Source: a phage
Direction: 5' to 3' (one strand)
Sequence record: PV935351.1
DNA length: 39,767 nt
Shown in pieces: positions 1-39,767 of the stretch (position 1 is the first letter of the stretch; every line of letters starts with the position of its first letter). The position numbers and the translations under genes were made by a program. The notes under the pieces were generated by a model, which was not told where the DNA came from, did not search any database, and saw only the letters and a program-made list of their open reading frames with translations.

Positions 1-204
1 TCTCACAGTTCAAGAACCTCAAGTCTCCCCCCCTAGGCCCTCTTTCAGTCCAGACCAAAGGCCCTACCCATTACTGCTCCTTGCAGTCACAGCCAGTCTA
101 TCATAAGGTTGGACCGATGGTCAAGACGTTAGGTCGACGATAGGTCTAGGCTATGGCTTAGGGAAGGACGATAGGTAGAGGCTATAGGTCTTCTTTGAGT
201 CTCT
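1..204. repeat. left direct terminal repeat (DTR)
   Basis: Bases 1-204 are identical to 39564-39767 by direct comparison; typical of T7-like genome ends. Confidence 0.95.
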
Positions 205-234
205 ATCTGTATAGTGTTATAGTATAACATTACG

Positions 235-325
235 TCCTACACCTACAGTCTCACTAACCTACAGTCTCACTAACCTACAGTCTCAACCATAAGACACCAA
301 CACCTACAGTCAGAGACCTACGGTT
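235..325. repeat. short direct-repeat array just inside left DTR
   Basis: CCTACAGTCTCACTAA in three tandem copies (242-289, 16-bp period, third copy degenerate), plus CCTACAGTC at 303-311 and CCTACGGTT at 317-325. Confidence 0.8.
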
Positions 326-435
326 AATAGACACAAAGGCTATAGACTTAAGGTCTAAGACATGTTAGTCAAAGACTATATCCTCTTACACCATGGGGCC
401 GACGATAGCTTAATCAATATTATTTAAATAACCTA

Positions 436-466
436 TTGACTATAGGTCCAGACTATGGCCTAATAG
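436..466 (+). promoter_or_regulatory. candidate host sigma70 early promoter (weak match)
   Basis: TTGACT at 436-441 followed about 19 nt later by TAATAG; poor -10 match; lies in the early leader. Confidence 0.3.
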
Positions 467-575
467 CTTCCGTCAACACGACACGGCAACAACCGGATAG
501 TGAAGACGCCGGTCCGGTCCGGTTAAGTAGTCAGCCTGTAAGACATACGAACAACAGGCAACCGACAGAAAGTAG

Positions 576-605
576 TTGACAAGATGTAACGATAAGATGT
601 AAGAT
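576..605 (+). promoter_or_regulatory. candidate host sigma70 early promoter (T7 A3-like)
   Basis: TTGACA (576-581), 18-nt spacer, TAAGAT (600-605); the same -35/-10 hexamers as recalled for T7 A3. Confidence 0.5.
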
Positions 606-728
606 GTACCACATCGAAACAACGGTGATGACCAACACTGAAATGGTCTACCTGAAGTCCTCTGACTGAAGGGAATGCTCTTTAACAATCTGGATAAACT
701 CTTAATGTGCGCCGATAGCGACTAACTA

Positions 729-760
729 CAGGGCCTTTGAGTCTACATCTGAAGGCCCTG
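729..760 (+). other. stem-loop in gene 0.3 leader (possible RNase III site)
   Basis: CAGGGCCTT (729-737) and AAGGCCCTG (752-760) form a perfect 9-bp inverted repeat with a 14-nt loop, about 35 nt upstream of the gene 0.3 start. Confidence 0.5.
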
Positions 761-794
761 ACTGATAGTCACTAACAACTGAGAGGATATAACT

Positions 795-1304
795 ATGGAA
801 CGTAACGCTAACGCATACTATGAGCTGCTGGCTGCAACCGTTGAGCTGTTCAATGAGCGTATTCAGTGCGACGAAATAGCTGAAGGCGATGACTACAGCG
901 ATGCGCTACATGAGGTCGTAGACGGTAATGTTCCGCACTATTACCACGAGATTTTCACGGTGATGGCTGCTGATGGTATTGACCATGAGTTCGAAGACTC
1001 TGGGCTGATGCCTGAGACCAAGGACGTAACGCGTATACTACAAGCTCGCATCTATGAGGCACTGTATAACGATGTGTCTAATAGCTCTGACGTGGTCTGG
1101 TTTGAGGCTGAAGAGGAGGACGAAAAGGCTGAATATTGGGTAGTTGACACTAGAACAGGCGAGATAATTGATACAGCTGTATCAATTTACGAGGCTATTG
1201 CATGTGCAAAAGAACTATATGAGGAAGGTTTTCACATGCAGGTCGAAGACATCAACGATAACGTAGTGTTCGATCCTGAGGCTGCTGAGGAGGACTGCGA
1301 GTGA
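795..1304 (+). CDS. 0.3: Ocr-like DNA-mimic anti-restriction protein with C-terminal extension
   Basis: 169 aa; core [43 protein letters not shown] closely matches recalled T7 Ocr; about 55 extra acidic residues at the C-terminus; GAGG RBS. Confidence 0.85.
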
Positions 1305-1465
1305 TGGTAACTTATGGTCTCTGCCAGCACCACGTCTCCATCGCCAGGCTTATGGTCTTGACCGGGCGATTAACCCACGAGGAGTCTATGCGTCTCCTGA
1401 AGGTGCTCTATGAGCGCCGCAAACGTATGCACGATAGTCTACACGCTGAGGATAAACCACAATGA
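1304..1465 (+). CDS. small early protein, gp0.4-like
   Basis: 53 aa, ATG overlaps the gene 0.3 stop (TGATGG); GAGGAGG RBS; YGL...LLKVLYE pattern resembles recalled T7 gp0.4. Shorter than 60 aa, so absent from the ORF track. Confidence 0.5.
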   Translation: MVTYGLCQHHVSIARLMVLTGRLTHEESMRLLKVLYERRKRMHDSLHAEDKPQ

Positions 1466-1611
1466 AACGATACGCTATACACATTCCGGGATGGTGTTAC
1501 ACAATGACTTGCTACGGATACAACGAGAGAGACGCAAGAGCCCGCTTCCGTGACCAGCAAGGATTCGGTAAACGTCTGCCAAATGGTACGGCTATCTGGG
1601 AGATTGACTAA
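1462..1611 (+). CDS. hypothetical small early protein
   Basis: 49 aa (MKRYAIHIPGWCYTMTCYGYNERDARARF...), ATGA overlap with the upstream ORF, GAGG RBS. Confidence 0.45.
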   Translation: MKRYAIHIPGWCYTMTCYGYNERDARARFRDQQGFGKRLPNGTAIWEID

Positions 1612-1612
1612 C

Positions 1613-2510: not shown

Positions 2511-2533
2511 ACTTAACTATCACTATAGGACTC
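2511..2533 (+). promoter_or_regulatory. phage RNAP promoter upstream of the RNAP gene
   Basis: CTTAACTATCACTATAGGA, +1 G at 2528; -8 to -1 (TCACTATA) identical to the T7 promoter. Confidence 0.7.
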
Positions 2534-2602: not shown

Positions 2603-5284
2603 ATGAGCGTCATCTCTATTGATAAACACGACTTCTCTGATGTGTCGAACGCCATTGAGCCGTTTAACCTGCTGGCAGACCACTACGGGCAAGACCTTGC
2701 AGTCAAACAGCTTCAGCTTGAGCATGAGGCATACACAGAAGGCGAGCGACGTTTCATCAAAAACCTTGAGCGACAGACTGAGCGCGGGGAACTGGCAGAC
2801 AATCAGGTCGCCAAGCCTTTGATGCAGACTCTGGTGCCTAAGATTGCGCAAGCAGTCAAGGAGTGGCACGAAGGCCAAGACGGGAAGCTGTCAACCTCTC
2901 GTCCTAGCGTAGCGTTCACCATGTTAAGCACCGAAGAGAAGGCCGTCAAGGACCGCTCTCTGCGTATCTCTTGCGAGTCTGCTGCGGTCATCATACTGAA
3001 GGTCATACTCTCCAAGCTGGTAAAGCCTGAAGGGATACCGATTACACCGATGGCCTCAGCGTTAGGTCGCACACTTGAGGACGAAATCCGCTTCGGTCGC
3101 ATCCGTGACAAGGAGAAGGAGCACTTCAAGAAGGCGATAGCTGAGAACCTGAACAAGCGAGCTGGGGCATCCTACAAGAAAGCCTACATGCAAGCGGTAG
3201 AGGCATCCATGCTGGAGCAAGGCCAACTGGAAGATGCGTGGGGGACTTGGAGTCCGACCGAAGCGGTACACGTTGGCATCAAGATGCTAGAGATTGTCAT
3301 CCAGTCCACACAACTGGTCGAGCTTAAGCGTTATGGTGCTGGCAATGCGGCGGCTGACGTTGAGATGGTCCACCTGTCAGACTTCTGGGTCAAGAAGATG
3401 GCACAACGAGGATTCAGCCTTGCGGGTATAGCTCCAGTCTACCAGCCTTGCGTCGTTCCACCTAAGCCGTGGACTGGTGTCGTAGGTGGTGGGTACTGGG
3501 CCAAAGGTCGCAGACCGCTACCCCTGATTCGCTTAGGGTCTAAATCAGCGGTGGCACGTTATGAAGACGTATACATGCCTGAAGTCTATGACGCTGTGAA
3601 TATCATCCAGAATACACCTTGGAAAGTGAACAAGAAGGTACTGGACGTGGTGAACATGGTCGAGAAGTTGAACAACACGCCTATTGATGACATCCCTCAG
3701 ATGGAGCCACTGAAGCCTGAAGACTATGCGGGTGAGACTGAGGAGGAACTCAAGGCATGGAAGAAGGCTGCTGCTGGTATCTATCGCCGCGAGAAGGCCC
3801 GACAGTCACGCAGATTATCACTGAGCTTTATCGTTAACCAAGCAAACAAGTTCTCTCAGTTCAAGGCCATCTGGTTCCCGTACAACATGGATTGGCGAGG
3901 TCGTGTCTACGCTGTCCCGATGTTCAACCCTCAGGGTAACGACATGCAGAAGGGTCTACTGACTCTGGCAGTCGGCAAGCCTATTGGTGCTGACGGTTTC
4001 AAATGGCTGAAGGTCCACGGTGCGAACTGTGCGGGTGTCGATAAAGTCACCTTCGAGGAGCGCATCAAGTGGGTGGAAGACAACCACGAAAACATCATTG
4101 CTGCTGCTAAGGCACCGATGGATAGTATTGAGTGGTGGGGCAAGTTAGACTCTCCGTTCTGTTTCCTCGCGTTCTGCTTCGAGTATGCTGGCGTAATGCA
4201 CCACGGCCTGTCTTACTCCTGCTCGCTGCCGATAGCGTTCGATGGGTCCTGCTCTGGTATTCAGCACTTCAGTGCGATGCTTCGTGACCACATCGGTGGA
4301 CATGCAGTAAACCTGACGCCATCCGGTAAGGTACAAGACATCTACCGCATTGTGTCTGACCGCATTGAGGAGGAGCTTAAAGTCCTGCTGATTACAGGTA
4401 CTGACAACGAGATGGACACTCACGAGGACAAGAAAACTGGTGAGAGTACCGAACGTATCAAGCTGGGGACACGAGAGCTGGCCCGTCAGTGGCTGACATA
4501 CGGTATGTCACGCAAGGTCACTAAGCGTTCAGTCATGACTCTGGCCTATGGGTCGAAAGAGTACGGCTTCGCAGACCAAGTTTATGAGGACATCGTGATG
4601 CCAGCGATTGACTCAGGGTCTGGCGCTATGTTCACCGAGCCTAGCCAAGCGTCTCGCTTCATGGCTAAGATGATTTGGGAAGCTGTGAGTGTGACCGTAG
4701 TTGCTGCGGTTGACGCGATGAAGTGGCTTCAAGGTGCTGCCAAGCTGCTGGCTGCTGAGGTGAAGGACAAGAAGACTGGAGAAATCCTGAAGCCTTGCCT
4801 TCCGGTACACTGGGTAACACCTGATGGTTTCCCGGTCTGGCAGGAATACCGCAAGAAGGATACCACTCGTCTGAACCTGATGTTCTTAGGGTCATTCAAC
4901 CTTCAACCTACGGTCAACAAAGGTATGAAGAAGGAGTTGGATAAGCACAAGCAGGAGTCAGGAATTAGCCCGAACTTCGTCCACTCACAAGATGGTAGCC
5001 ATCTCCGCAAGACTGTAGTCCACACTCACCGCAAGTATGGCGTGATGTCATTCGCAGTGATTCACGATAGCTTCGGGACCATCCCGGCTGACGCTGAGTA
5101 TCTGTTCCGTGGCGTCCGTGAGACAATGGTCGAGACCTACCGCGACAACGATGTGCTGCTTGACTTCTACGAGCAGTTTGAATACCAGCTTCACGAGAGC
5201 CAGCGCGACAAGTTGCCTGAGCTTCCGAAGAAAGGTAAACTAAATATCGAGGACATCTTGTCTTCAGACTTTGCATTCGCTTAA
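2603..5284 (+). CDS. 1: T7-type single-subunit DNA-directed RNA polymerase
   Basis: 893 aa; collinear with recalled T7 RNAP, ending in the shared FAFA terminus and including WFPYNMDWRGRVYA, LPIAFDGSCSGIQHFSAMLRD and HDSFGT. Confidence 0.98.
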   Translation: MSVISIDKHDFSDVSNAIEPFNLLADHYGQDLAVKQLQLEHEAYTEGERRFIKNLERQTERGELADNQVAKPLMQTLVPKIAQAVKEWHEGQDGKLSTSRPSVAFTMLSTEEKAVKDRSLRISCESAAVIILKVILSKLVKPEGIPITPMASALGRTLEDEIRFGRIRDKEKEHFKKAIAENLNKRAGASYKKAYMQAVEASMLEQGQLEDAWGTWSPTEAVHVGIKMLEIVIQSTQLVELKRYGAGNAAADVEMVHLSDFWVKKMAQRGFSLAGIAPVYQPCVVPPKPWTGVVGGGYWAKGRRPLPLIRLGSKSAVARYEDVYMPEVYDAVNIIQNTPWKVNKKVLDVVNMVEKLNNTPIDDIPQMEPLKPEDYAGETEEELKAWKKAAAGIYRREKARQSRRLSLSFIVNQANKFSQFKAIWFPYNMDWRGRVYAVPMFNPQGNDMQKGLLTLAVGKPIGADGFKWLKVHGANCAGVDKVTFEERIKWVEDNHENIIAAAKAPMDSIEWWGKLDSPFCFLAFCFEYAGVMHHGLSYSCSLPIAFDGSCSGIQHFSAMLRDHIGGHAVNLTPSGKVQDIYRIVSDRIEEELKVLLITGTDNEMDTHEDKKTGESTERIKLGTRELARQWLTYGMSRKVTKRSVMTLAYGSKEYGFADQVYEDIVMPAIDSGSGAMFTEPSQASRFMAKMIWEAVSVTVVAAVDAMKWLQGAAKLLAAEVKDKKTGEILKPCLPVHWVTPDGFPVWQEYRKKDTTRLNLMFLGSFNLQPTVNKGMKKELDKHKQESGISPNFVHSQDGSHLRKTVVHTHRKYGVMSFAVIHDSFGTIPADAEYLFRGVRETMVETYRDNDVLLDFYEQFEYQLHESQRDKLPELPKKGKLNIEDILSSDFAFA

Positions 5285-5589: not shown

Positions 5590-5612
5590 CCTAAACTATC
5601 ACTATAGGATTA
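5590..5612 (+). promoter_or_regulatory. phage RNAP promoter
   Basis: CTAAACTATCACTATAGGA, +1 G at 5607. Confidence 0.8.
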
Positions 5613-5662
5613 GACTCAAGGTCATGACTCAAAGTCGTGGCCTTCATGATTAACCCTAACTC
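5611..5662 (+). ncRNA. conserved structured RNA element, copy A (candidate RNase III site)
   Basis: TAGACTCAAGGTCAT, 11 variable nt, GTGGCCTTCATGATTAACCCTAACT; the same element recurs at 12952 and 36562. Confidence 0.55.
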
Positions 5663-5682
5663 ATTCAATCAGGAGCTACACC

Positions 5683-5865: not shown

Positions 5866-6117
5866 ATGAGTAAACGTTGGCTATTCGACGCATCCACGAG
5901 CCAGTGGTCAGCGGTAGGCCGGACTCACCGCGCGATGAGTGAGGCAGGACTTGATGTCCTAATGGATTACTCGCCGTTCCCCGGAAAAATTCTGGTCAGA
6001 GTAATTGAAGCAGATGGTGGGAGGCTTCTGGTCTCCAGAGAATTTACCGAAGATGAAATCTTTAACTGTGAGCAATGGTGCTTACAACAATTGAACGCTT
6101 ATAGGAGCTGGAAATAA
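5866..6117 (+). CDS. 1.2: gp1.2-like protein (T7 gp1.2 inhibits host dGTPase)
   Basis: 83 aa, same size and position as T7 gp1.2, ends ...NAYRSWK (T7 ends ...DWK). Confidence 0.7.
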   Translation: MSKRWLFDASTSQWSAVGRTHRAMSEAGLDVLMDYSPFPGKILVRVIEADGGRLLVSREFTEDEIFNCEQWCLQQLNAYRSWK

Positions 6118-7169
6118 TGACAACGACTATCAAAACTAACCCGCACCGCGCTGTAGATTACTCTGAGTCTGGCGTTAAGAAGGCACTGGAAGCAGCCGGG
6201 TCGCTTGAAGCTGAAGTGAAGTACGATGGCGTCCGGTTGAATCTTCCGGTCTTCCCTACTGGTGAGACCCAATGGTTGAGCCGTGAGTCTAAACCTCTCC
6301 CAGCCCTTAGCTGGTTGAACACTTCCGGTCAGGACATAGGAGCTACCAAAGCGAGCGACTGGCGGTGGTTCCTGAAGCAAGCTGGCTATGAAGGGACTGG
6401 TCTGATGATTGATGGCGAGGTCATGGTGAAAGGGGTTGACTTCAACACGTCTTCGGGCCTCATCCGCACGAAGTATGTCAAGTCTAAAAACTACGACTTC
6501 CACGATGGCGATTGGGACCTCAAGTCCAAGACTACTCAGTTCCGGCTGGACCGAGACCATATCAAGGTGGTCGTCTACGGTGTAGTGGACCTTAACGTCA
6601 TCCTTGACCCGAAAGCCGAAGGTCCTATCCATAGCGTCACACGCCTGAAGGCCGAAGCTATCGTCCCTCTCCTCCAGAAATACTTCCCGGAAATCGACTG
6701 GGTTCTGTCTGAGTCACACACGGTCTATGACCTTGAGTCGCTCAGCTCCCTGTACGAAGAGAAGCGGCTGGAAGGACATGAGGGTCTGGTAGTCAAGGAC
6801 CCGCTTGGTAAATACAAGCGTGGCAAGAAGTCAGGCATGTGGAAAATGAAGCCTGAGGAGACCATCGACGGGACCGTGTGTGGCCTAGTGTGGGGGACTC
6901 CGGGCAAGGCTAACGAAGGTAAGGTGATTGGCTTTGAGGTGCTGCTTGAGGATGGCATGGTGGTTAACGCTTGTGGCCTGACTGAAGAACAGAAGGATGA
7001 GTTTACGGAAGCCTGTAACACTGATACATATATCCTCGGTGAAATCAATCCATACGAAGGCTGGCAGTGTGAAGTCCTTTTCATGGAGAGGTTCCCTGAT
7101 GGCTCACTCCGTCACCCTAGCTTCAAGTGCTGGCGCGGGACGGAAGACAACCCGACCGTTAAGAGTTAA
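6117..7169 (+). CDS. 1.3: ATP-dependent DNA ligase
   Basis: 350 aa; adenylation motif I KYDGVR at residues 35-40; T7 gene 1.3 position. Confidence 0.95.
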   Translation: MTTTIKTNPHRAVDYSESGVKKALEAAGSLEAEVKYDGVRLNLPVFPTGETQWLSRESKPLPALSWLNTSGQDIGATKASDWRWFLKQAGYEGTGLMIDGEVMVKGVDFNTSSGLIRTKYVKSKNYDFHDGDWDLKSKTTQFRLDRDHIKVVVYGVVDLNVILDPKAEGPIHSVTRLKAEAIVPLLQKYFPEIDWVLSESHTVYDLESLSSLYEEKRLEGHEGLVVKDPLGKYKRGKKSGMWKMKPEETIDGTVCGLVWGTPGKANEGKVIGFEVLLEDGMVVNACGLTEEQKDEFTEACNTDTYILGEINPYEGWQCEVLFMERFPDGSLRHPSFKCWRGTEDNPTVKS

Positions 7170-7231: not shown

Positions 7232-7254
7232 CCTAAACTATCACTATAGGACAA
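7232..7254 (+). promoter_or_regulatory. phage RNAP promoter
   Basis: CCTAAACTATCACTATAGGAC, +1 G at 7249. Confidence 0.8.
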
Positions 7255-8387: not shown

Positions 8388-8460
8388 GAGAAAATTTGAG
8401 GAGACAGGTAACGTCGATTACCTTCATCTCTACAACCAATGGAAGGAGCGTGGTCTATGA
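8353..8460 (+). CDS. hypothetical small ORF (gene 1.8 position)
   Basis: 35 aa, overlaps the HNH gene end and the gene 2 start; no clear RBS. Confidence 0.25.
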
Positions 8461-8615: not shown

Positions 8616-8633
8616 ACTATCACTGTAGGACAG
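8611..8633 (+). promoter_or_regulatory. phage RNAP promoter (variant, G at -3)
   Basis: CCTAAACTATCACTGTAGGAC; overlaps the gene 2 stop; precedes the SSB gene. Confidence 0.6.
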
Positions 8634-11068: not shown

Positions 11069-12948
<1,880 letters not shown>

Positions 12949-31800: not shown

Positions 31801-32706
31801 AGTAAGCGTAAGTTCGATGACCGCTGGCTGAAGACCGCTGGTATATCTGACGAGCAGTGGAATGGCATTAAGTCCCTAATCCGTGAGTCAGTGACTCGTG
31901 GTCCAGACGGGAAGTACACCATCAAGGATAAGAAGGCGTTCAGTCAGGACCCAAGGGCTATGGACCTATGGCGTATGGGTGATACCATCGCTGACGAAAC
32001 GTTACTACGTCCTCATAAGCTGTCCAACATGGACGCAAAGGCTTATGGTCCTATCGCTAAGACTGTCCTTCAGTTTAAGAACTTCGTCATCAAGTCCATC
32101 AATGGGCGAACCATGCGTACCTTCTATAACGCCACGAAGAACAACCGAGCGATTGACGCTGCACTATCGACCGTGATGTCTATGGGTCTGGCTGGTATCT
32201 ACTACATGGCTCAGGCGCACGTCAAGGCTTATGCTATGCAGGATGGTCGAGACCGTGACTACCTTAAGCAAGCTCTGGACCCGACGATGATTGGTTATGC
32301 GGCTCTGTCCCGTAGTTCACATCTGGGTGGACCACTTGGGGTAGCTAACATTCTGGGTGGCATCGCTGGGTATGAGGACACTAAGATGCTCCGTTCGTCT
32401 ATCCTACCTCGTTCGCCCACAGAGAAGCCTGAACGTGCCATCGCGTATGGTGCAGCTACAAGTGACCCTGTGATGAATGTTGTTGGTAACTTCTTGGAGC
32501 AGGTTCCAGCTTTCGGATATGCTGCTAACGTTGGTGCTTCGGCTTATAACTTGGCTGGCTACCTGAAGGCCGACACTCGGGTAAACGAGCGAGACTACAT
32601 GACCGGGATGTATAACACCTTCCGTGAACTGGTTCCGAACGACCCGATTACTCAGAAGTTGCTACTGGGAACGTTTGAGGAGCAAGGTATCCACATCAAG
32701 GACTAA
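28819..32706 (+). CDS. 16: internal virion protein D (ejection core) with a non-T7-type N-terminal domain
   Basis: 1295 aa; from about residue 200 collinear with recalled T7 gp16 (TWFGFG, VRSPTGMQSGASGK, RPEVKKRVDE, MPAYDRRVNGDIAIMG, LSRSS); the N-terminal 130 aa lack the T7 transglycosylase TESRF motif. Confidence 0.93.
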   Translation: MATRGIRNNNPGNIRVSKDQWEGMTGDDGAFVTFDSPESGVRALGKNLLSYGRQGYDSIEKIINRWAPPNENETKAYIDSVVAATGIPATQSLDLSNPDTLSSLAQAISFHETGSRYDPEVYQKGVARALNGISPKTPPVSANVFDALTEGLKAKPKVALGENLPTAAGLNIEGQAPEAPNESFGEMFYKSTGETMQEREDRSTWFGFGSATEAEVKNSMVGVAIRAGQTEDSLDVIGDVFNPTRWNNHKWSREELDQIRNAGVLPQYYGVITGGSPQNLTELINLALENQKLDQEKAKAGTGAQLAAGVIGAGVDPLTYVPIAGQIGKGGKLVNKMFTVAAQSGALAGVSEMARTSVAGGDAHVAEAILGGALFGGGMTAIADGLGRALGRNTNEFAGPATRLEARETARNVDGQDLSRLPIQEGEETFSYQGVKFADVPNEPGSVRLEDGSILIGENPLNPKTRQVFDEVIEPERAAAGVNLGGLTEIGLKLLRSENPEIRGVASDLVRSPTGMQSGASGKIGTTASDVFERLRAVDHRFYNDIDDAVTEALKDPYFQTAFWRDSGAFRQDIYQRVSMAIEDGSGNLKAELTPGELKVYDLLKNQFDAKREMMENPAMFGRPDAQSIFPGSRFKGTYVPHVYSKQMKELYTKELGSPEALQEAIKKSWLTSYASRPEVKKRVDEALLESDPTLTPEGLAAAVDKYANDKAYGISHTEQFERSSVMEENINGLVGLENNSFLEARNLFDSDMSIVLPNGQTFSVNNLREWDMDKIVPAYNRRVNGDIAIMAGTGKTTKDMKDLVETMMNKAGDDGKLKGEVSTLRDTLKILTGRARRDGADDAAFATVMRTMTDLSFFAKNAYMGVQNLTEIGGMLARGNVRAMLHGVPIFRDLAFRNKKVGASEIKDLHNVIFGKELDDSIRPSKQDVIDRLRSYSDLGRGTATALGTAKYYTGELAVRSPFTKVLNGTTNYLLDAGRQGFLSDIVEHSLTGSKRKFDDRWLKTAGISDEQWNGIKSLIRESVTRGPDGKYTIKDKKAFSQDPRAMDLWRMGDTIADETLLRPHKLSNMDAKAYGPIAKTVLQFKNFVIKSINGRTMRTFYNATKNNRAIDAALSTVMSMGLAGIYYMAQAHVKAYAMQDGRDRDYLKQALDPTMIGYAALSRSSHLGGPLGVANILGGIAGYEDTKMLRSSILPRSPTEKPERAIAYGAATSDPVMNVVGNFLEQVPAFGYAANVGASAYNLAGYLKADTRVNERDYMTGMYNTFRELVPNDPITQKLLLGTFEEQGIHIKD

Positions 32707-32724
32707 ACTATCACTATAGGAAAC
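32702..32724 (+). promoter_or_regulatory. phage RNAP promoter for the tail fibre gene
   Basis: CTAAACTATCACTATAGGAAAC, +1 G at 32719; overlaps the gene 16 stop. Confidence 0.8.
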
Positions 32725-32771: not shown

Positions 32772-35700
32772 ATGTCCACGATTACACAATTCCCTTCAGG
32801 AAACACTCAGTACAGGATTGAGTTCGACTACCTAGCCAGAACGTTTGTGGTTGTTACGCTGGTGAATAGCTCTAACCCTACCATGAACCGTGTACTGGAA
32901 GTTGGTCGAGATTACCGATTCCTTAATCCAACGATGATTGAGATGTTGGTTGACCAATCAGGTTTCGACATCGTTCGTATTCACCGTCAGACTGGAACTG
33001 ACTTAGTGGTAGACTTCAGGAATGGCTCAGTGTTGACAGCTAGTGACCTGACCAATTCAGAGCTTCAGGCTATCCATATTGCAGAAGAAGGTCGAGACCA
33101 AACGGTTGACTTAGCGAAGGAATATGCCGATGCTGCTAGTAGCTCTGCTGGCAACGCTAAGGATAGCGAGGACGAAGCACGACGAATCGCTGAGAGTATC
33201 AGGGAAGCTGGTCTAATTGGCTATATTACCCGTCGCTCCTTCGAGAAAGGCTACAACGTTACAACATGGAGCGAGGTCCTGCTATGGGAAGAGGATGGTG
33301 ATTATTACCGCTGGGATGGTACGCTTCCAAAGAACGTTCCTGCTGGTTCAACTCCTGAAACTTCCGGTGGGATTGGATTAGGTGCGTGGGTTAGTGTTGG
33401 TGATGCTGCTTTAAGAAGTCAGATTTCAAACCCGGAGGGGGCAATACTCTACCCTGAATTACATAGAGCACGCTGGCTTGATGAAAAAGATGTGCGTGGT
33501 TGGGGTGCTAAAGGGGATGGTGTCACTGATGATACAGCAGCGTTAACGAGCGCATTAAGCGCCACACCTGTTGGACAAAAGGTTAATGGCAATGGGAAGA
33601 CATATAAGGTCACATCACTTCCTGACATTAGTCGCTTCATCAACACTCGTTTCGTTTATGAGCGCATTCCCGGACAACCTCTTTATTATGCCTCTGAAGA
33701 ATTTGTTCAGGGTGAGCTATTCAAAATAACTGACACCCCTTATTACAATGCGTGGCCTCAGGATAAAGCGTTCGTATATGAGAATGTGATATATGCACCT
33801 TACATGGGTAGCGATCGTCATGGTGTTAGTCGTCTGCATGTATCATGGGTTAAGTCTGGTGATGACGGTCAAACATGGTCTACTCCAGAGTGGTTAACTG
33901 ATCTGCATCCAGATTACCCTACAGTGAACTATCATTGTATGAGTATGGGTGTATGTCGCAACCGTCTGTTTGCCATGATTGAAACACGTACTTTAGCCAA
34001 GAACGCATTAACCAATTGTGCATTGTGGGATCGCCCCATGTCTCGTAGCCTGCATCTTACTGGTGGTATCACTAAAGCTGCAAATCAGCAATATGCAACA
34101 ATACATGTACCAGACCACGGACTATTCGTTGGTGATTTTGTTAACTTCTCTAATTCTGCGGTAACAGGTGTCTCCGGTGACATGACTGTTGCAACCGTAA
34201 TAGATAAGGACAACTTCACGGTTCTTACACCCAACCAGCAGACTTCAGATTTGAATAACGCTGGAAAGAATTGGCACATGGGTACTTCTTTCCATAAGTC
34301 GCCATGGCGTAAGACAGACCTTGGTCTAATCCCTCGTGTCACAGAGGTGCATAGCTTTGCTACTATTGATAACAATGGCTTTGTTATGGGTTATCATCAA
34401 GGCGATGTAGCTCCATGCGAAGTTGGACTTTTCTATTTCCCTGACGCTTTCAATAGCCCATCTAGTTATGTTCGTCGTCAGATACCATCTGAGTATGAAC
34501 CAGATGCGTCAGAGCCGTGCATCAAGTACTATGACGGTGTATTATACCTTATCACTCGTGGCACTCGTGGGGATAGACTGGGTAGCTCTTTGCATCGTAG
34601 TAGAGACATAGGTCAGACTTGGGAGTCGCTGAGATTTCCACATAATGTTCATCATACTACATTACCTTTTGCTAAAGTAGGGGATGACCTTATTATGTTT
34701 GGTTCAGAACGTGCAGAAAATGAATGGGAAGAAGGTGCGCAAGATGATCGTTACAAGGCATCTTATCCTCGCACCTTCTATGCACGCTTGAATGTAAACA
34801 ATTGGAATGCAGACGATATTGAATGGGTTAACATCACTGACCAGATTTATCAGGGCGGAATAGTTAACTCAGGTGTAGGCGTTGGTTCGGTAGTTGTGAA
34901 GGATAGTTACATCTACTACATGTTTGGTGGAGAGGACCATTTTAACCCATGGTCATATGGAGATAACTCAGCGAAGGATCCATTCAAAGCAGATGGTCAT
35001 CCCTCAGATTTGTATTGCTACAAAATGAAGATTGGCCCAGACAATCGTGTTTCAAGGGATTTCAGGTATGGTGCTGTACCTAACAGAGCTGTTCCCGTGT
35101 TTTTTGATACGAATGGGATTCGCACTGTTCCTGCGCCAATTGAATTTACAGGGGATTTAGGTTTAGGTCATGTGACCATTAGAGCCAGCACCAGTAGTAA
35201 CATTCGCTCTGAAGTTTTAATGGAAGGTGAATATGGGTTTATCGGAAAATCTATACCGACTGATAACCCGGCAGGGCAGCGCACTATATTTTGCGGAGGC
35301 GACAGTACCAGTTCTTCTTCTGGTGCACAGATTACGCTTTATGGTGCAAATAACACCGACTCAAAGCGAATAGTTTACAATGGTGCTGAGCATCTGTTCC
35401 AGACTGCTGACGTTAAGCCTTATAACGATAACGTCACTGCGCTTGGTGGGCCTAGCAACCGTTTCACCACTGCATACCTCGGAAGCAACCCTATTGTTAC
35501 TTCTAACGGGGAGAGGAAAACAGAGCCGGTAGTTTTTGATGATGCTTTCCTTGATGCCTGGGGTGATGTTCACTACATCATGTACCAGTGGTTGGATGCT
35601 GTTCAACTGAAAGGCAATGATGCTCGTATTCACTTCGGTGTTATTGCTCAGCAAATTCGTGATGTATTCATTGCGCATGGTCTGATGGACGAAAACAGTA

Positions 35701-35966
35701 CGAATTGTCGTTATGCTGTTCTGTGCTATGACAAGTATCCACGGATGACCGATACGGTATTTTCGCACAATGAAATCATTGAACACACTGACGAGGAGGG
35801 TAATGTCACTACTACGGAAGAACCTGTATACACCGAGGTGGTTATTCACGAAGAGGGTGAGGAGTGGGGTGTTCGGCCTGACGGAATTTTCTTTGCTGAA
35901 GCCGCTTATCAGAGAAGAAAACTGGAAAGAATCGAAGCCAGACTTTCTGCTCTTGAACAGAAGTAA
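32772..35966 (+). CDS. 17: tailspike endosialidase (endo-N-acetylneuraminidase) with gp17-like N-terminal adaptor and C-terminal chaperone domain
   Basis: 1064 aa; N-terminus MSTITQFPSGNTQYRIEFDYLARTF... is gp17-like; two Asp-boxes SGDDGQTW and SRDIGQTW; matches the endoNF precursor of phage K1F as I recall it; AT-richer from about 33420. Confidence 0.92.
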   Translation: MSTITQFPSGNTQYRIEFDYLARTFVVVTLVNSSNPTMNRVLEVGRDYRFLNPTMIEMLVDQSGFDIVRIHRQTGTDLVVDFRNGSVLTASDLTNSELQAIHIAEEGRDQTVDLAKEYADAASSSAGNAKDSEDEARRIAESIREAGLIGYITRRSFEKGYNVTTWSEVLLWEEDGDYYRWDGTLPKNVPAGSTPETSGGIGLGAWVSVGDAALRSQISNPEGAILYPELHRARWLDEKDVRGWGAKGDGVTDDTAALTSALSATPVGQKVNGNGKTYKVTSLPDISRFINTRFVYERIPGQPLYYASEEFVQGELFKITDTPYYNAWPQDKAFVYENVIYAPYMGSDRHGVSRLHVSWVKSGDDGQTWSTPEWLTDLHPDYPTVNYHCMSMGVCRNRLFAMIETRTLAKNALTNCALWDRPMSRSLHLTGGITKAANQQYATIHVPDHGLFVGDFVNFSNSAVTGVSGDMTVATVIDKDNFTVLTPNQQTSDLNNAGKNWHMGTSFHKSPWRKTDLGLIPRVTEVHSFATIDNNGFVMGYHQGDVAPCEVGLFYFPDAFNSPSSYVRRQIPSEYEPDASEPCIKYYDGVLYLITRGTRGDRLGSSLHRSRDIGQTWESLRFPHNVHHTTLPFAKVGDDLIMFGSERAENEWEEGAQDDRYKASYPRTFYARLNVNNWNADDIEWVNITDQIYQGGIVNSGVGVGSVVVKDSYIYYMFGGEDHFNPWSYGDNSAKDPFKADGHPSDLYCYKMKIGPDNRVSRDFRYGAVPNRAVPVFFDTNGIRTVPAPIEFTGDLGLGHVTIRASTSSNIRSEVLMEGEYGFIGKSIPTDNPAGQRTIFCGGDSTSSSSGAQITLYGANNTDSKRIVYNGAEHLFQTADVKPYNDNVTALGGPSNRFTTAYLGSNPIVTSNGERKTEPVVFDDAFLDAWGDVHYIMYQWLDAVQLKGNDARIHFGVIAQQIRDVFIAHGLMDENSTNCRYAVLCYDKYPRMTDTVFSHNEIIEHTDEEGNVTTTEEPVYTEVVIHEEGEEWGVRPDGIFFAEAAYQRRKLERIEARLSALEQK

Positions 35967-36099: not shown

Positions 36100-36297
36100 A
36101 TGATTGAGTTAGACTTCAAGAATGAGGTCCTTAAAGCCTCTCCTATCGTCGGGACCGCTGCGGCTGATGGTGCCAGTCGGTTCTTCTTCGGACTTACGCT
36201 GAACGAATGGTTCTACGTTGCAGCTATCGCGTACACCGTTGTCCAGATTGGTGTGCTAGTCTACAAAACGATTAAAGGAGGCGGTGGTAAAACATGA
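36100..36297 (+). CDS. 17.5: holin
   Basis: 65 aa; FFFGLTLNEWFYVAAIAYTVVQIG nearly identical to recalled T7 gp17.5. Confidence 0.93.
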   Translation: MIELDFKNEVLKASPIVGTAAADGASRFFFGLTLNEWFYVAAIAYTVVQIGVLVYKTIKGGGGKT

Positions 36298-36557
36298 CGC
36301 AGATGGACTTAGAGAAGTTCCTCTTAATGCTAGATACTGAACGTGCTCGACTCATGCTGCAAGACCTGCGGGATGACACTAAGCGTTCACCTCAGCTCTA
36401 CAACGCCATTGAGAAGCTGCTTGCTCGTCACAACTTTGTGTTAAGCAAGGTGTCTGTTGACGAGAAGACGCTCGCTGATATGGAGGCCCTTAACGCAGAG
36501 TACGATAAGGTGCTCTCCGCTACGGAAGATAATGACACCGGGTATGGTGTTCAATAA
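36294..36557 (+). CDS. 18: terminase small subunit
   Basis: 87 aa; size and position of T7 gp18. Confidence 0.85.
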   Translation: MTQMDLEKFLLMLDTERARLMLQDLRDDTKRSPQLYNAIEKLLARHNFVLSKVSVDEKTLADMEALNAEYDKVLSATEDNDTGYGVQ

Positions 36558-36561
36558 GTGT

Positions 36562-36611
36562 TAGACTCAAGGTCATTACTATATGTAGTGGCCTTTATGG
36601 TTAACACTAAC
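36562..36611 (+). ncRNA. conserved structured RNA element, copy C (candidate RNase III site)
   Basis: TAGACTCAAGGTCAT, 11 variable nt, GTGGCCTTTATGGTTAACACTAACT; sits where T7 has the R18.5 site. Confidence 0.6.
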
Positions 36612-36658
36612 TAGTGGAGGCGACTCTACGTGAAATCTGATAAACCGGGAGGGCAACT

Positions 36659-37108
36659 ATGCTCGAATTTTTAAAGAGAGCGGCTCCGTGGTTACTTGCA
36701 GCAGTGATGTTTGCTGGTGGCTACCACACCGCTAACAATAAGTGGGAGGCTAAGGTCAATGCAGAATACACCTCGAATCTTAAGGCATCGGAAGATACAA
36801 GGCTTGCTGTCCAAGCTGAAGTCAACAAAGTGTCCAAACGGTTTCAGGACGAAATGTCCTCGCTGGAAGGCAGCACTGATAGGATTATTGCTGACCTTAA
36901 GTCTGACAATAAGCGGCTGCTCATCCGAGTCAAACCTACGAGTGGAACCACGCAAAGTGACGGTCGATGCTTCATTGATGGTTACGCCGAACTTGACGAA
37001 CGAGATGCTAAACGTCTTATCACCATCGGAGTGAAAGGAGACAAGTGGATTAAGGCCCTTCAAGACACTGTGATAGCCTTACAGCAAGAGAAGGAGGTGA
37101 CGCATTGA
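36659..37108 (+). CDS. 18.5: i-spanin (Rz-like)
   Basis: 149 aa; N-terminal TM helix ([14 protein letters not shown]), coiled-coil periplasmic region. Confidence 0.9.
36759..37034 (+). CDS. 18.7: o-spanin (Rz1-like lipoprotein) embedded in the +1 frame of gene 18.5
   Basis: About 91 aa; lipobox LTISGC; PRWKAALIG...SGC..SES...VDASLMV.PNLT.EMLNV matches recalled T7 gp18.7. Confidence 0.85.
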   Translation: MQNTPRILRHRKIQGLLSKLKSTKCPNGFRTKCPRWKAALIGLLLTLSLTISGCSSESNLRVEPRKVTVDASLMVTPNLTNEMLNVLSPSE

Positions 37109-38868
37109 GTAAAGACTTAGTGGCGCGTCAGGCGCTAATGACTACCCGTATGAAGGCAGACTTCGTGTTCTTCCTGTTCGTCCTGTGGAAAGCTCTTAGC
37201 CTACCAGTACCAACCAGATGCCAGATAGATATGGCCCGCAAGCTATCGGCTGGGGACAACAGGCGTTTCATCCTACAGGCGTTCCGTGGTATCGGGAAGT
37301 CCTTCATTACGTGTGCATTCGTAGTCTGGAAACTATGGAACAACCCAGACTTGAAGTTCATGATTGTGTCGGCCTCAAAGGAACGAGCCGATGCGAACTC
37401 CATCTTCATCAAGCGAATCATCGACCTCATGCCTCAGCTTCGGGAACTCAAACCTAAGCAGGGGCAGCGAGATGCGGTTATCAGCTTCGACGTTGGACCA
37501 GCCAAGCCAGACCACTCACCTTCGGTTAAGTCCGTTGGTATCACTGGTCAGTTGACTGGTAGTCGTGCTGACCTCCTGATTGCCGATGACGTGGAGGTTC
37601 CAAACAACTCGGCGACTCAGGCTGCACGAGACCGTCTGTCAGAGCTTGTAAAAGAGTTCGACGCTATCCTGAAGCCGGGAGGTACAATCATCTATCTGGG
37701 TACTCCTCAGAACGAGATGACCTTATATCGTGAGCTGGAAGGCCGTGGATACACCACTACCATCTGGCCCGCTCGCTACCCACGCGATAAGAAGGACTGG
37801 CAGTCTTACGGCGACCGTCTGGCACCGATGCTTCAGGCAGAGCTTGAAGAGGACCCTGAGTCCTTCTACTGGCGTCCGACAGATGAAGTACGATTCGATG
37901 ATACGGACCTGAAGGAACGTGAGCTGTCCTATGGTAAAGCTGGCTTCGCTCTACAGTTCATGCTTAACCCGAACCTGAGTGATGCTGAGAAGTACCCTCT
38001 GAAGCTCCGTGACCTTATCGTAGCCGACTTGGACCCAGCGTCTAGCCCAATGGTATACCAATGGCTTCCTAACCCTCAGAACAAGCGTGAGGACGTTCCT
38101 AACGTTGGACTCATGGGTGACTCATACCACACGTATCAGACTGTAGGTTCTGCCTTCAGTTCGTACACCCAGAAGATTCTGGTCATTGACCCTAGTGGTC
38201 GTGGTAAGGATGAAACTGGCTATGCGGTACTATATCAGCTCAACGGCTACATCTTCGCTATGGAAGTTGGAGGTATGCGTGGTGGTTATGAGGACTCTAC
38301 GCTGGAAGCCTTGGCTAAGATTGGTCGTAAGTGGAAGGTCAACGAATACGTCATTGAGGGTAACTTCGGTGATGGTATGTACCTTGAGCTATTCAAGCCT
38401 GTAGCTGCCCGTATCCATCCTGCGGCTGTAACTGAAGTGAAGAGTAAGGGTCAGAAAGAACTCCGCATCTGTGACGTTCTGGAGCCTATCATGGGGTCTC
38501 ACCGACTTATCGTCAACGCTGCTGCTATCGTCCAAGACTACCAGACAGCCTCTGACAAGGATGGTGTGCGTAACCCTATCTACTCTCTCTTCTACCAGAT
38601 GACCCGTATCTCTCGTGAACGTGGAGCCTTGGCACACGATGACCGACTTGATGCGCTGGCTATCGGTGTACAGTTCTTCGTTGAGTCTATGGCTAAGGAT
38701 GCCAACAAAGGCGAACGTGAAGTCACTGAGGAGTGGCTGGAGGAACAGATGGAGAATCCACGGAAAGGCTTCGAGTCCATCCACACTGAGTTCTGGGACA
38801 ATGGGGTCCGGGTAACTCACGATACGGACGACGAGCTGGGACTAGGGTCCTACGTTACGTTCCACTAG
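37105..38868 (+). CDS. 19: terminase large subunit
   Basis: 587 aa from TTG 37105 (AAGGAGG RBS); [82 protein letters not shown] match recalled T7 gp19. Confidence 0.97.
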
Positions 38869-38877
38869 CTGAATGAA

Positions 38878-38926
38878 TAACTATAGGCGAAAGCTGCATG
38901 AATAAGCAGTTAGTAACCTATAGTTA
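38878..38926 (+). other. 10-bp perfect inverted repeat downstream of gene 19
   Basis: TAACTATAGG (38878-38887) / CCTATAGTTA (38917-38926), 29-nt spacer; the arms resemble the promoter 3' half (ACTATAGG). Confidence 0.5.
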
Positions 38927-38962
38927 CTACCAGTCTAACCTACTGTTTTATAAGGAGTTTGG

Positions 38963-38985
38963 ACTTAACTATCACTATAGGGAAG
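38963..38985 (+). promoter_or_regulatory. phage RNAP promoter near the right end (phiOR-like)
   Basis: CTTAACTATCACTATAGGGAAG, +1 G at 38980. Confidence 0.8.
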
Positions 38986-39165
38986 ACCCCCGGTTACTTA
39001 TAGTATTACTGTAGTGAATATACATATGCAGACTTTATGCAAGACCTTAGGAGGCAGACTCCGAGTTCTTACCTAAGGCTTGCACCGATGGAAGGAGGGT
39101 GATATTAATCATAATCCCTCCAATACAGATAGTCACCGACCATAGATACAGGAGGTATGTAGCAT

Positions 39166-39324
39166 ATGGCAAAGACCAAAGCTGTACTTAAAGCTCTGGC
39201 GACCAATCGAGCTACATACAGGTTTCTTGCTGCTGTTCTACTTGCTGCTGGCGTTACTGCTGGAAGTCAGTGGGTCGGGTGGGTCGAGACTCTCGTATGT
39301 TCTCTGGTGTCTCAGTGTAATTAA
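39166..39324 (+). CDS. 19.5: gp19.5-like small membrane protein
   Basis: 52 aa; TYRFLAAVLLAAG...SLVSQCN resembles recalled T7 gp19.5; AGGAGG RBS. Confidence 0.7.
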   Translation: MAKTKAVLKALATNRATYRFLAAVLLAAGVTAGSQWVGWVETLVCSLVSQCN

Positions 39325-39357
39325 CGCAATCATGGTAACGATTCATGAGCGGAAGAC

Positions 39358-39399
39358 CTAAGGTCAGTACGTGGATACAGACCCACTCTACTGACCTTA
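39358..39399 (+). other. 12-bp perfect inverted repeat near the right end
   Basis: CTAAGGTCAGTA (39358-39369) / TACTGACCTTAG (39388-39399), 18-nt spacer; about 165 bp left of the right DTR. Confidence 0.6.
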
Positions 39400-39486
39400 G
39401 CTACTGTAGTCAAGGACTTTAGGTAACACCTTAAGAGAAGCTCACTTAGGGTCATCCTACTTATTGGTCTATCCTAGTGTCGCCTG

Positions 39487-39526
39487 ACCTACGGTCCTTG
39501 ACCTACAGTGGCTGAGGCCTACAGTA
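39487..39526. repeat. short repeat array just inside right DTR
   Basis: ACCTACGGTC (39487-39496), ACCTACAGTG (39501-39510), CCTACAGTA (39518-39526); same motif and orientation as the left-end array. Confidence 0.75.
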
Positions 39527-39563
39527 GTGACGATGAGTTTTGGACCAAAAGTTTGAGACCACA

Positions 39564-39767
39564 TCTCACAGTTCAAGAACCTCAAGTCTCCCCCCCTAGG
39601 CCCTCTTTCAGTCCAGACCAAAGGCCCTACCCATTACTGCTCCTTGCAGTCACAGCCAGTCTATCATAAGGTTGGACCGATGGTCAAGACGTTAGGTCGA
39701 CGATAGGTCTAGGCTATGGCTTAGGGAAGGACGATAGGTAGAGGCTATAGGTCTTCTTTGAGTCTCT
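39564..39767. repeat. right direct terminal repeat (DTR)
   Basis: Identical to bases 1-204. Confidence 0.95.

Follow-up and report, generated by a model that had tools for sequence, protein, structure and literature searches.

Results

Gene content and order

The window, meaning the whole stretch of 39,767 bases analysed here, carries about 50 genes that cover 92% of the sequence, and every feature described below lies on the + strand. The sequence-only reading had claimed that every T7 core gene is present in canonical order on one strand, and tblastn searches with T7 proteins bear this out: core genes 1, 2, 2.5, 3, 3.5, 4, 5, 6 and 8-19 are all present in T7 order, with every match on the + strand and at ascending coordinates. 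The early and replication matches comprised 0.3, 1, 1.3, 1.6, 1.7, 1.8, 2, 2.5, 3, 3.5, 4, 5, 5.7 and 6, the late matches comprised 6.5, 6.7, 7.3, 8-16, 17.5, 18, 18.5/18.7, 19 and 19.5, and the match to T7 gene 17 was confined to its N-terminal part. Pfam supported these gene identities, and PHROG profile searches added genes resembling 1.2, 5.5 and 7. Searches with T7 proteins and profiles detected no homologue of genes 0.7 (kinase) or 5.9, neither of which is a core gene, and the genome yielded no tRNA or Rfam match. G (10597) exceeds C (9254) on the + strand, as expected because transcription is one-directional.

The early region includes gene 0.3 (795..1304), for an Ocr-like anti-restriction DNA mimic (Pfam ocr, E = 8e-31; 95% to K1F, 61% to T7), and gene 1 (2603..5284), for the single-subunit RNA polymerase (Pfam RNA_pol, E = 3e-106; 98% to K1F, 62% to T7 gp1). 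The gene 1.2-type dGTPase inhibitor (5866..6117; phrog_6515, E = 2e-38) is the EcoDS1/ZG49 allele, 94% to ZG49 and with no match in K1F, HAO1, YIO1 or Mt1B1_P3. It is followed by a divergent gene 1.3 ATP-dependent DNA ligase (6117..7169; Pfam DNA_ligase_A_M and DNA_ligase_C; 70% to K1F), a nucleotide kinase-like gene 1.7 (7535..7975; 69% to the C-terminal part of T7 gp1.7) and a T7 gp2.8-like HNH homing endonuclease (7965..8387; Pfam HNH_3, phrog_59). K1F, HAO1 and Mt1B1_P3 lack the latter gene at this locus, whereas Salmonella phage CHRF_10022 carries it there at 93%.

Downstream lie gene 2, the host RNA polymerase inhibitor (8457..8615; a T7 gp2 match, 94-98% to relatives), gene 2.5, the ssDNA-binding protein (8674..9372; Pfam SBB_T7, E = 1e-72), gene 3, endonuclease I (9372..9824; Pfam Phage_endo_I, E = 2e-81), a conserved Kayfunavirus gene (9821..10315) that matched phrog_16385, of the function category unknown, and nothing in the Pfam search, gene 3.5, an amidase/lysozyme (10305..10763; Pfam Amidase_2; 69% to T7), and gene 4, the primase/helicase (11072..12772; Pfam Helic-prim_T7_N, Toprim_2 and DnaB_C). 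A second HNH homing endonuclease (12976..13413; Pfam HNH_3, E = 2e-17), resembling T7 gp7.7 (48%) and YIO1 gp23 (84%), abuts gene 5. The gene 5 DNA polymerase itself is uninterrupted (13404..15572; Pfam DNA_pol_A). Beyond it come a 5.5-like gene of the H-NS inhibitor family (15730..16014; phrog_1452, E = 2e-24), gene 5.7 (16011..16220; 77% to T7 gp5.7), gene 6, the 5'-3' exonuclease (16217..17083; Pfam 5_3_exonuc_N; 51% to T7), and genes 6.5 (17294..17566) and 6.7 (17581..17805), each a T7 tblastn match.

Virion assembly is represented by a gene 7-like host range/adsorption protein (17846..18214; phrog_2746, E = 8e-46), gene 7.3 (18207..18455; T7 tblastn match), the gene 8 portal or head-tail connector (18467..20035; Pfam Head-tail_con, E = 4e-97) and the gene 9 scaffolding protein (20132..21016; Pfam Phage_T7_Capsid). 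Gene 10 (21143..22317; Pfam Gp10A-like) encodes the major capsid protein 10A, which terminates at 22186, and is predicted to yield also the minor capsid protein 10B, which would arise by a -1 frameshift at GGTTTTC (22165) and end at 22317; the slippery site and the extension are homologous to those of T7 10B. Then follow the tail tubular proteins A (gene 11, 22478..23044; Pfam Tube) and B, the nozzle (gene 12, 23044..25401; Pfam Phage_nozzle, 1097 bits), gene 13 (25478..25954; Pfam Phage_T7_Gp13), and the internal virion proteins B (gene 14, 25933..26520; Pfam T7_gp14), C (gene 15, 26532..28814; 47% to T7 gp15) and D (gene 16, 28819..32706; 53% to T7 gp16). Lysis and packaging genes comprise the class II holin gene 17.5 (36100..36297; Pfam Phage_holin_2_2), the small terminase subunit gene 18 (36294..36557; Pfam DNA_Packaging_2), the Rz-like spanin gene 18.5 (36659..37108) with gene 18.7 embedded at 36759-37034 (49% and 52% to T7), and the large terminase subunit gene 19 (37105..38868; Pfam Terminase-T7_RNaseH-like; 65% to T7, 98% to K1F); gene 19.5 (39166..39324), matched by T7 tblastn and in relatives, completes the set.

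The tailspike

Gene 17 (32772..35966) encodes an endosialidase tailspike that shares 1033 of 1064 residues (97%) with K1F gp17 and matches PDB entries 1V0E and 3GVK. Its architecture joins a T7-tail adaptor to a beta-propeller/barrel, a stalk and an S74 chaperone (Pfam Phage_T7_tail, End_N_terminal, End_beta_propel, End_beta_barrel, End_tail_spike and Peptidase_S74). Residue 549 is arginine in every other endosialidase checked (CGC/CGA in relatives) and cysteine here (TGC, 34416..34418), through a single C-to-T change. R549 is listed as a catalytic residue with very low tolerance of substitution (PMC13564897), and the R549C change raises doubt as to whether the tailspike encoded by this particular genome would be fully active. 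This replacement of a catalytic arginine by cysteine, in the tailspike that degrades the capsule, is the sole oddity of an otherwise ordinary genome.

Promoters, terminator and hairpins

Eleven phage promoters match CTAAACTATCACTATAGG, against 0.02 expected, and all read rightwards on the + strand. Those at 5591..5608 (phi1.1-like), 7233..7250, 17211..17228 (phi6.5-like), 20032..20049 (phi9-like), 21019..21036 (phi10-like) and 32703..32720 (phi17-like) fit the consensus exactly; those at 2512..2529 (directly 5' of gene 1), 8612..8629 (phi2.5-like) and 25427..25444 (phi13-like) have one mismatch, and that at 11000..11017 has two. The last, at 38964..38981, lies 583 bases before the right terminal repeat and is phiOR-like, its EcoDS1 homologue being annotated phiOR. 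Two candidate host (sigma-70) early promoters lie at 436..472 (TTGACT...TAATAG), whose EcoDS1 homologue at 469-505 is annotated 'host RNAP promoter', and at 576..605 (TTGACA-18-TAAGAT, 10/12 matches), a consensus match only.

A T-phi-type terminator hairpin with a 17-pair stem (22320..22357; fold -25.4 kcal/mol, z = -4.1) is followed by a T-run. Candidate RNase III-type processing hairpins occur at 5605..5665 (repeat families D6 and D8; -20.2 kcal/mol, z = -4.4), 12940..13000 (families D8 and D15; z = -4.4) and 36556..36616 (family D6, 85% to 5610-5661; z = -4.0). Homology with T7 and K1F is the basis for the roles proposed for the repeats, promoters and hairpins.

Genome ends

The identical 204-base ends claimed in the sequence-only reading were recovered exactly: on self-comparison, bases 1-204 equal 39564-39767, and 204 is the longest prefix equal to a suffix. 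A chance origin is excluded because the match is exact over 204 bases. The left direct terminal repeat (DTR; 1..204) opens with TCTCACAGT and its inner boundary reads ...GAGTCTCT|ATCTGT, both as in T7, K1F, EcoDS1, Mt1B1_P3 and Milel; the right DTR (39564..39767) is preceded by TTTGGACCAAAAGTTTGAGACCACA, the same bases that precede the right repeat in K1F, EcoDS1, Milel and Mt1B1_P3. The short repeat CCTACRGT occurs 19 times in the genome, against 2.7 expected genome-wide, and eight of the 19 copies flank the DTRs: five just inside the left one (242..324, an array that includes a 16-base tandem x2.8 at 241-285) and three just before the right one (39488..39525). The terminal repeat of T7 is likewise flanked by short-repeat arrays, and the right-hand array here is similar in position.

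Discussion

Taken together, these features make it very probable that the window holds the full linear genome of an E. coli podophage, T7-type and strictly lytic, of the genus Kayfunavirus, with genuine 204-base DTRs at its ends, so that the earlier reading of the genome is supported overall. By analogy with T7, host RNA polymerase would read the left end from the sigma-70 candidates at 436 and 576, yielding Ocr and the phage RNA polymerase, and the latter would transcribe the remainder rightwards from the 11 K1F-type promoters seen in the sequence. The T-phi hairpin 3' of the capsid gene would attenuate this transcription, and the RNase III-type hairpins would serve as transcript cut sites. 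A replisome made up of the products of genes 2.5, 4, 5 and 6 would copy the linear DNA; through the terminal repeats, daughter molecules would join end-to-end as concatemers with one repeat copy per junction, which the terminase (genes 18 and 19) would cut, duplicating the repeat during packaging. Because packaging duplicates the one junction repeat, both copies carried by a virion genome would be identical. The K1F-type endosialidase tailspike would bind the host's K1 capsule of polysialic acid, which such a tailspike would normally digest.

It could be argued that the genome is real but that its identical ends are an assembly or circularisation overlap, or were pasted on by a depositor, and give no evidence of physical terminal repeats. 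Many related records are indeed circularly permuted with one repeat copy (that of phiHAO1-1 begins at genome position 128, inside the repeat), an artefact would also yield two perfectly identical copies, and a circular assembly that a depositor or program had rotated to a homologous start, with the repeat appended, would give identical ends as well. However, an arbitrary circularisation breakpoint would fall on the family-conserved TCTCACAGT start with odds of about 1 in 39,563, and an artefact would further need to stop precisely on the conserved ...GAGTCTCT|ATCTGT boundary; the repeat length also fits the repeats of Mt1B1_P3 and Milel but for 2 bases. Even a repeat appended by homology would leave the implied biology standing. 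The placement of the boundaries as in T7, K1F, EcoDS1 and Mt1B1_P3 is therefore evidence against a circularisation artefact, which we regard as improbable, and the DTR, genuine in appearance, begins and ends at the conserved termini of the T7 family. Nothing was found in favour of a prophage, a phage-plasmid or a piece of some larger element, and such readings of the window are far less credible still. Searches of 5,426 complete E. coli genomes and of 72,556 plasmids gave no match to positions 1-12000, the gene map holds no integrase, repressor or host flank, and the gene set spans ocr to gene 19.5 between both repeats. As judged from its sequence, the window is thus most readily taken for what had been proposed, a whole linear phage genome.

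The further proposal that this is phage K1F or a very close relative stands at the level of the genus, the tailspike and the promoters, but not for K1F itself. The two phages share 98% of RNA polymerase, primase and terminase residues, the promoter sequence, the relative places of the promoters and the genome length class. Nevertheless, whole-genome alignment gave 93.7% identity to K1F over 93.7% of the genome, an identity x coverage of 87.9%, and because this lies under the 95% species threshold, the phage is not K1F at species level. Nothing in K1F corresponds to nine segments of 97-460 bases, and the phages also differ in their gene 1.2 allele, ligase, 5.5-like gene and both HNH genes; conversely, gene 5 of K1F is a joined CDS split by an HNH gene that is missing here. 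It is therefore very unlikely that the window is K1F or another strain of its species, Kayfunavirus K1F.

On sequence grounds, the phage is a member of Kayfunavirus (the K1F genus, Studiervirinae, Autographiviridae) infecting E. coli, and within that genus a distinct species-level lineage. Its nearest records, slightly closer than K1F, are phiYIO1-1 (90.6%), Mt1B1_P3 (89.9%) and phiHAO1-1 (89.9%), and T7 stands at 23% (all identity x coverage, whole genome). Among 50,697 phage records, the best match to the left half reached only 92% coverage at 93% identity, and no identical genome or protein was found in any collection searched. It is in its early genes, its ligase and its two HNH homing endonucleases that the phage differs; exchange of early-gene alleles and of homing endonucleases chiefly sets this genome apart.

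The promoter upstream of gene 1 is kept in K1F (2478-2492), whereas the annotation of the T7 record has no T7 promoter at that place. Run-off sequencing has put the terminal repeats of K1F-group phages at 183-190 bases, with 179 bases in K1F and up to 230-242 in others of the wider group (PMC4925675). The T7 repeat is 160 bases long and has the same ...CT|ATCTGT inner boundary; in EcoDS1, the homologous 178 bases were annotated by the depositors as 'terminal repeat' and 'concatemeric junction'. The DTR described here is separated from that of K1F (178/179 bases) by a 24-base indel, and it belongs instead to the 202-204-base class, together with those of Mt1B1_P3 and Milel, each 202 bases long.

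Taxonomic placement

The window is a relative of phage K1F within the genus Kayfunavirus which, as judged from nucleotide alignment, is distinct at the species level and is not K1F itself. Megablast against 50,697 phage records placed it in Kayfunavirus, and intergenomic similarity, approximated as BLASTN identity multiplied by coverage, was 87.9% to K1F (93.7% identity over 93.7% coverage), 90.6% to phiYIO1-1, 89.9% to both phiHAO1-1 and Mt1B1_P3, 81% to Milel, and 23% to T7. The ICTV boundaries lie at a nucleotide similarity over the genome of at least 70% for a genus and at least 95% for a species. Thus, similarity to K1F and to the other Kayfunavirus records (81–91%, against 23% for T7) falls within the genus range, and similarity to K1F falls below that of the species Kayfunavirus K1F. 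The sequence-only reading had pointed to K1F or a very close relative; whole-genome alignment against K1F and T7 supports the kinship at the rank of genus but not the identity with K1F.

Among the same 50,697 records, the best match to the left 20 kb of the window reached 92% coverage at 93% identity, so that no record is able to reach the 95% species line. In addition, an exact 40-mer at the junction of gene 1.7 and its HNH neighbor was missing from IMG/VR, the exact gp17, RNA polymerase, HNH, and ligase proteins were missing from a collection of 15 billion proteins, and no phage record was 100% identical over the 121 bases around codon 549 of gene 17. Genes 11–19, in the right 17 kb, are 96–97% identical to those of K1-specific relatives, and the foci of divergence are the early region at 1.4–2.4 kb, gene 1.2, the ligase, two HNH genes, and a 5.5-like gene. 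Gene 1.2 is an EcoDS1/ZG49-type allele of the dGTPase inhibitor, and the ligase is 70% identical to that of K1F. Both HNH genes encode free-standing endonucleases, one gp2.8-like (7965–8387) and missing from K1F, the other gp7.7-like (12976–13413) and adjoining the polymerase gene, and two gaps that rank among the largest in the K1F alignment are due to them.

Genome ends

The first and last 204 bases of the window (1–204 and 39564–39767) had been described as identical, and the match is indeed exact, with 204 bases being the longest shared prefix and suffix (recovered also as a repeat family, D2). The window starts with TCTCACAGT, as do T7, K1F, EcoDS1, Mt1B1_P3, and Milel. At its inner edge, marked here by a slash, the left repeat reads ...GAGTCTCT/ATCTGTAT, the equivalent position in T7 being ...GTCCCT/ATCTGT, and the 25 bases preceding the right repeat are the same in K1F, EcoDS1, Milel, and Mt1B1_P3. 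In the EcoDS1 record, the depositors labelled the homologous 178 bases ‘terminal repeat’ and placed a ‘concatemeric junction’ at 177–184. The edges lie on boundaries that are conserved in the family, and an overlap left by arbitrary circularisation would hardly ever fall on them. Where the repeat sits thus speaks strongly for real ends, and it is from this position that we infer the physical termini. T7-like phages have linear dsDNA genomes of about 40 kb with short direct terminal repeats at fixed ends; in the window the repeat is present, its boundaries are homologous to the termini of T7, K1F, and EcoDS1, and a linear molecule with fixed ends is predicted.

Terminal repeats in Kayfunavirus come in two length classes, one of 202–204 bases (the window, Mt1B1_P3, Milel, and phiYIO1-1) and one of 178 bases (K1F and EcoDS1), which result from the presence or absence of a 24-base segment, ATTACTGCTCCTTGCAGTCACAGC, at 69–92. 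In both copies of the repeat, a C-run (27–34 and 39590–39597) reads CCCCCCCT in the window versus CCCCAT in five of five aligned relatives or, in fuller form, CCCCCCCTAGG (27–33) versus CCCCATAGG in all five; the first 45 bases of the repeat are otherwise invariant across these genomes. The two extra bases account for a repeat of 204 rather than 202 bases, and may reflect either genuine variation or an error in calling the homopolymer. The K1F repeat was published as 179 bases, run-off sequencing has given repeats of 183–190 bases in the K1F group, and those of other T7-like phages reach 230–242 bases (PMC4925675), so that a length of 204 bases is unremarkable. In that paper, run-off Sanger sequencing was applied to phages SH1–SH5.

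The motif CCTACRGT occurs 19 times across the genome, against 2.7 expected, and eight of these copies, all on the + strand, lie in two arrays adjoining the repeats: five copies immediately to the right of the left repeat (242–324) and three immediately to the left of the right repeat (39488–39525). The T7 repeat likewise has short-repeat arrays beside it, which the CCTACRGT arrays resemble in position, and a role as a packaging or junction-processing signal is possible. If replication proceeds as in T7, the terminal repeats would let replicated linear molecules link up as concatemers in which each junction holds a single repeat, and the terminase (gp18/gp19) would cut at these junctions; packaging would then duplicate the repeat, which would account for the identity of the two copies. 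This role of terminal repeats in concatemer formation and packaging follows the summary in PMC4925675.

Gene content and expression signals

When the T7 proteome was compared with the window by tblastn, matches were found for genes 0.3, 1, 1.3, 1.6, 1.7, 1.8, 2, 2.5, 3, 3.5, 4, 5, 5.7, 6, 6.5, 6.7, 7.3, 8–16, 17.5, 18, 18.5/18.7, 19, and 19.5, and for the N-terminal ~120 residues only of gene 17. All lie on the + strand and are collinear with T7, their coordinates climbing steadily. Pfam provided support for the RNA polymerase, ligase, T7-type SSB, endonuclease I, amidase, primase/helicase, family-A DNA polymerase, exonuclease, portal, scaffold, capsid, tail tube, nozzle, gp13, gp14, holin, and both terminase subunits, and PHROG profiles added genes resembling 1.2, 5.5, and 7. 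The canonical, one-strand order of T7 core genes that had been recognized in the sequence is thus borne out; the window has no equivalent of the T7 gene 0.7 kinase or of gene 5.9. Around 50 genes span 92% of the sequence, which has a G+C content of 49.9% and an excess of G over C on the + strand (10597 versus 9254), as expected where nearly all genes are read rightwards. In the interval between endonuclease I and the amidase, a gene of 164 aa (9821–10315) is kept across Kayfunavirus (phrog_16385) and has no Pfam match.

Hallmarks of the Autographiviridae and Studiervirinae are evident in this arrangement, including the conserved early, DNA-metabolism, and structural order on one strand and a single-subunit, DNA-dependent RNA polymerase of the phage's own, encoded by gene 1 (2603–5284; Pfam RNA_pol, E = 3e-106) and 62% identical to T7 gp1 over its full length. 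Minus-strand ORFs lie antisense to known genes and lack conservation. The ORF at 21119–22132 (− strand; 337 aa, 348 stop-free codons), antisense to the capsid gene, was rejected as a gene because the same frame is open for only 187–191 codons in T7 and K1F, and it is probably an artefact of codon usage. The same open frame occurs opposite the capsid gene of phiYIO1-1.

As a sequence pattern, the dispersed phage-specific promoters of these taxa are also present: 11 sites on the + strand match CTAAACTATCACTATAGG with at most two mismatches, against 0.02 expected, and the core AACTATCACTATAGG is found at homologous positions in K1F, phiHAO1-1, phiYIO1-1, Milel, and Mt1B1_P3. One such site (2512–2529), ~75 bases upstream of gene 1, is kept in K1F and other relatives, which suggests that gene 1 may be positively autoregulated in Kayfunavirus; the T7 record, unlike the window, has no phage promoter annotated directly upstream of gene 1. 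A phiOR equivalent lies at 38964, and a search that allowed up to three mismatches revealed no phiOL-like promoter close to the left end. A 17-pair hairpin and T-run 3′ of gene 10 form the equivalent of T-phi, three related bulged hairpins are candidate RNase III sites, and gene 10 keeps the slippery site GGTTTTC together with an extension in the −1 frame that shares homology with T7 10B. Scans for sigma-70 promoters and terminators were no richer than in shuffled sequence, and promoters and terminators were retained only where homology or a strong fold backs them. Two sigma-70 promoter candidates lie to the left of gene 0.3, one of them the homologue of a host promoter annotated in EcoDS1.

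A prophage origin was rejected, in agreement with the sequence-only reading, since the window contains no integrase or repressor and its first 12 kb (1–12000) had no match among 5,426 complete E. coli genomes and 72,556 plasmids. Scans of the whole window for tRNA and tmRNA genes and for Rfam families at gathering thresholds each returned 0. For practical purposes the window can be handled as a complete genome in the correct orientation, and that earlier interpretation stands with two refinements, namely that the phage is not K1F itself and that its physical ends are those deduced from the repeat.

The tailspike and residue 549

Gene 17 (32772–35966, +) encodes a protein of 1064 aa in which all six Pfam domains of the endoNF-type architecture score above threshold (T7-tail adaptor, endosialidase N-terminal, beta-propeller, beta-barrel, stalk, and S74 chaperone) and the cleavage/maturation serine, S911, is present. 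It aligns gap-free with K1F gp17 at 97% identity and matches PDB entries 1V0E, 3GVK, and 3GW6. By homology, its identity as an endosialidase is not in doubt; its full catalytic competence is. For K1F gp17, a study by deep mutational scanning names five key catalytic residues, H350, R549, E581, R596, and R647, and describes them as ‘highly intolerant to substitution’ (PMC13564897); the window keeps four of the five, residue 549 being Cys.

Codon 549 (34416–34418) is TGC in the window, CGC in six relatives, and CGA in five; relative to the CGC allele, this is a single C-to-T change, and it is the sole difference from SR04 over the surrounding 121 bases. Every other homologue examined has Arg at this position, including the phi92 endosialidase (PDB 4HIZ), 13 prophage-type endosialidases of ~66% identity, and eight IMG/VR and metagenome contigs, which makes Cys private to the window; the Cys-coding pattern itself had no match in IMG/VR. 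Among the sources of these codon readings are metagenome contigs with K1F-type endosialidases, namely L021 (ERZ809152 NODE-200, 38,335 bases) and L022/L023, which served solely for reading codon 549. A homologous-protein search with the beta-propeller, which informs the conservation of R549 rather than close variants, returned only prophage-type endosialidases of 65–79% identity and no K1F-type clusters.

The R549C change could be a base-call error. The window is not otherwise error-prone: across 11 core proteins it has 28 private substitutions, compared with 24–63 in five relatives, and no core gene is broken, so that an unusually error-prone sequence was rejected. The change could also be a rarity that is tolerated, or it could be a real loss of polysialic-acid cleavage. 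For such a loss there is a precedent in phage PK1A2, which bears on the reading of R549C: substitutions in its endosialidase abolish cleavage while polysialic-acid binding is kept, the mutant was propagated on a host with a much-reduced capsule, and binding-only endosialidase phages are thus viable on low-capsule hosts (PMC5715158). We regard it as possible, albeit doubtful, that R549C is real and cripples cleavage, in a natural or culture-adapted phage whose endosialidase would act mainly as a capsule-binding adhesin, or whose hosts would be thin-capsuled or acapsular. If so, the phage would be the Kayfunavirus counterpart of the binding-only PK1A2 mutant, in a genome that is otherwise that of an ordinary new Kayfunavirus species.

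Significance and comparison with known phages

There is little new biology in the genome as a whole: textbooks already cover T7-type genomes with their terminal repeats, as well as the endosialidase of K1F, and public Kayfunavirus genomes number in the hundreds. What is new is a species-level lineage of a well-known kind, with R549C as its one surprise. A lineage unseen in the collections searched that carries a K1-capsule depolymerase is relevant to phage-therapy catalogues directed at neonatal-meningitis E. coli, and R549C, if real, would offer a cheap natural test of the amount of cleavage that K1 phages need for infection.

K1F (Kayfunavirus K1F; NC_007456/DQ111067) shares with the window a genus-level backbone, gene order, terminal sequence, core proteins that are 95–100% identical, and a gp17 of equal length. 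It differs in its gene 1.2 allele, in a diverged 1.7 region and 5.5-like gene, in a gene 5 that is split by an HNH gene and is continuous in the window, and in a terminal repeat that is 178 bases in the record versus 204 in the window, owing to the 24-base indel and the C-run change. The nearest whole-genome relatives found, phiYIO1-1 (PP079210), Mt1B1_P3 (MT496969), and phiHAO1-1 (PP079211), all below 95%, share the endosialidase tailspike at 96–98% and are mosaic relative to the window in the 1–2.5 kb early region, in genes 1.2/1.3, and in homing endonucleases. Mt1B1_P3 has a long-class repeat of 202 bases with the same boundaries as the window, and phiYIO1-1 has additional endonuclease genes near gene 19 that are missing from it. 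The window aligns to all of the terminal repeat (1–178), concatemeric junction, host promoters, and phiOR annotated in another Kayfunavirus, EcoDS1 (EU734172), except that the third annotated host promoter (764–800) falls in a stretch missing from the window; its gene 1.2 allele belongs to the family found in the window, but its repeat, unlike that of the window, is of the 178-base class.

T7 (NC_001604) resembles the window in its short terminal repeat with a TCTCACAGT start and a ...CT/ATCTGT inner boundary, its early, middle, and late order on one strand, its own RNA polymerase and promoter core ...CACTATAGG, T-phi downstream of gene 10, a GGTTTTC frameshift site for 10A/10B, and phiOR ~550–580 bases ahead of the right repeat. 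At 23% nucleotide similarity, however, its proteins are 32–77% identical, it has the gene 0.7 kinase and 5.9, its promoter specificity region is CGACT rather than AACTAT, and its tail fibre is replaced in the window, beyond the first ~120 residues, by the endosialidase tailspike. PK1A2 (mutPK1A2, MG004687), finally, is a K1E-like Vectrevirus of another subfamily, which retains Arg at the position corresponding to 549.
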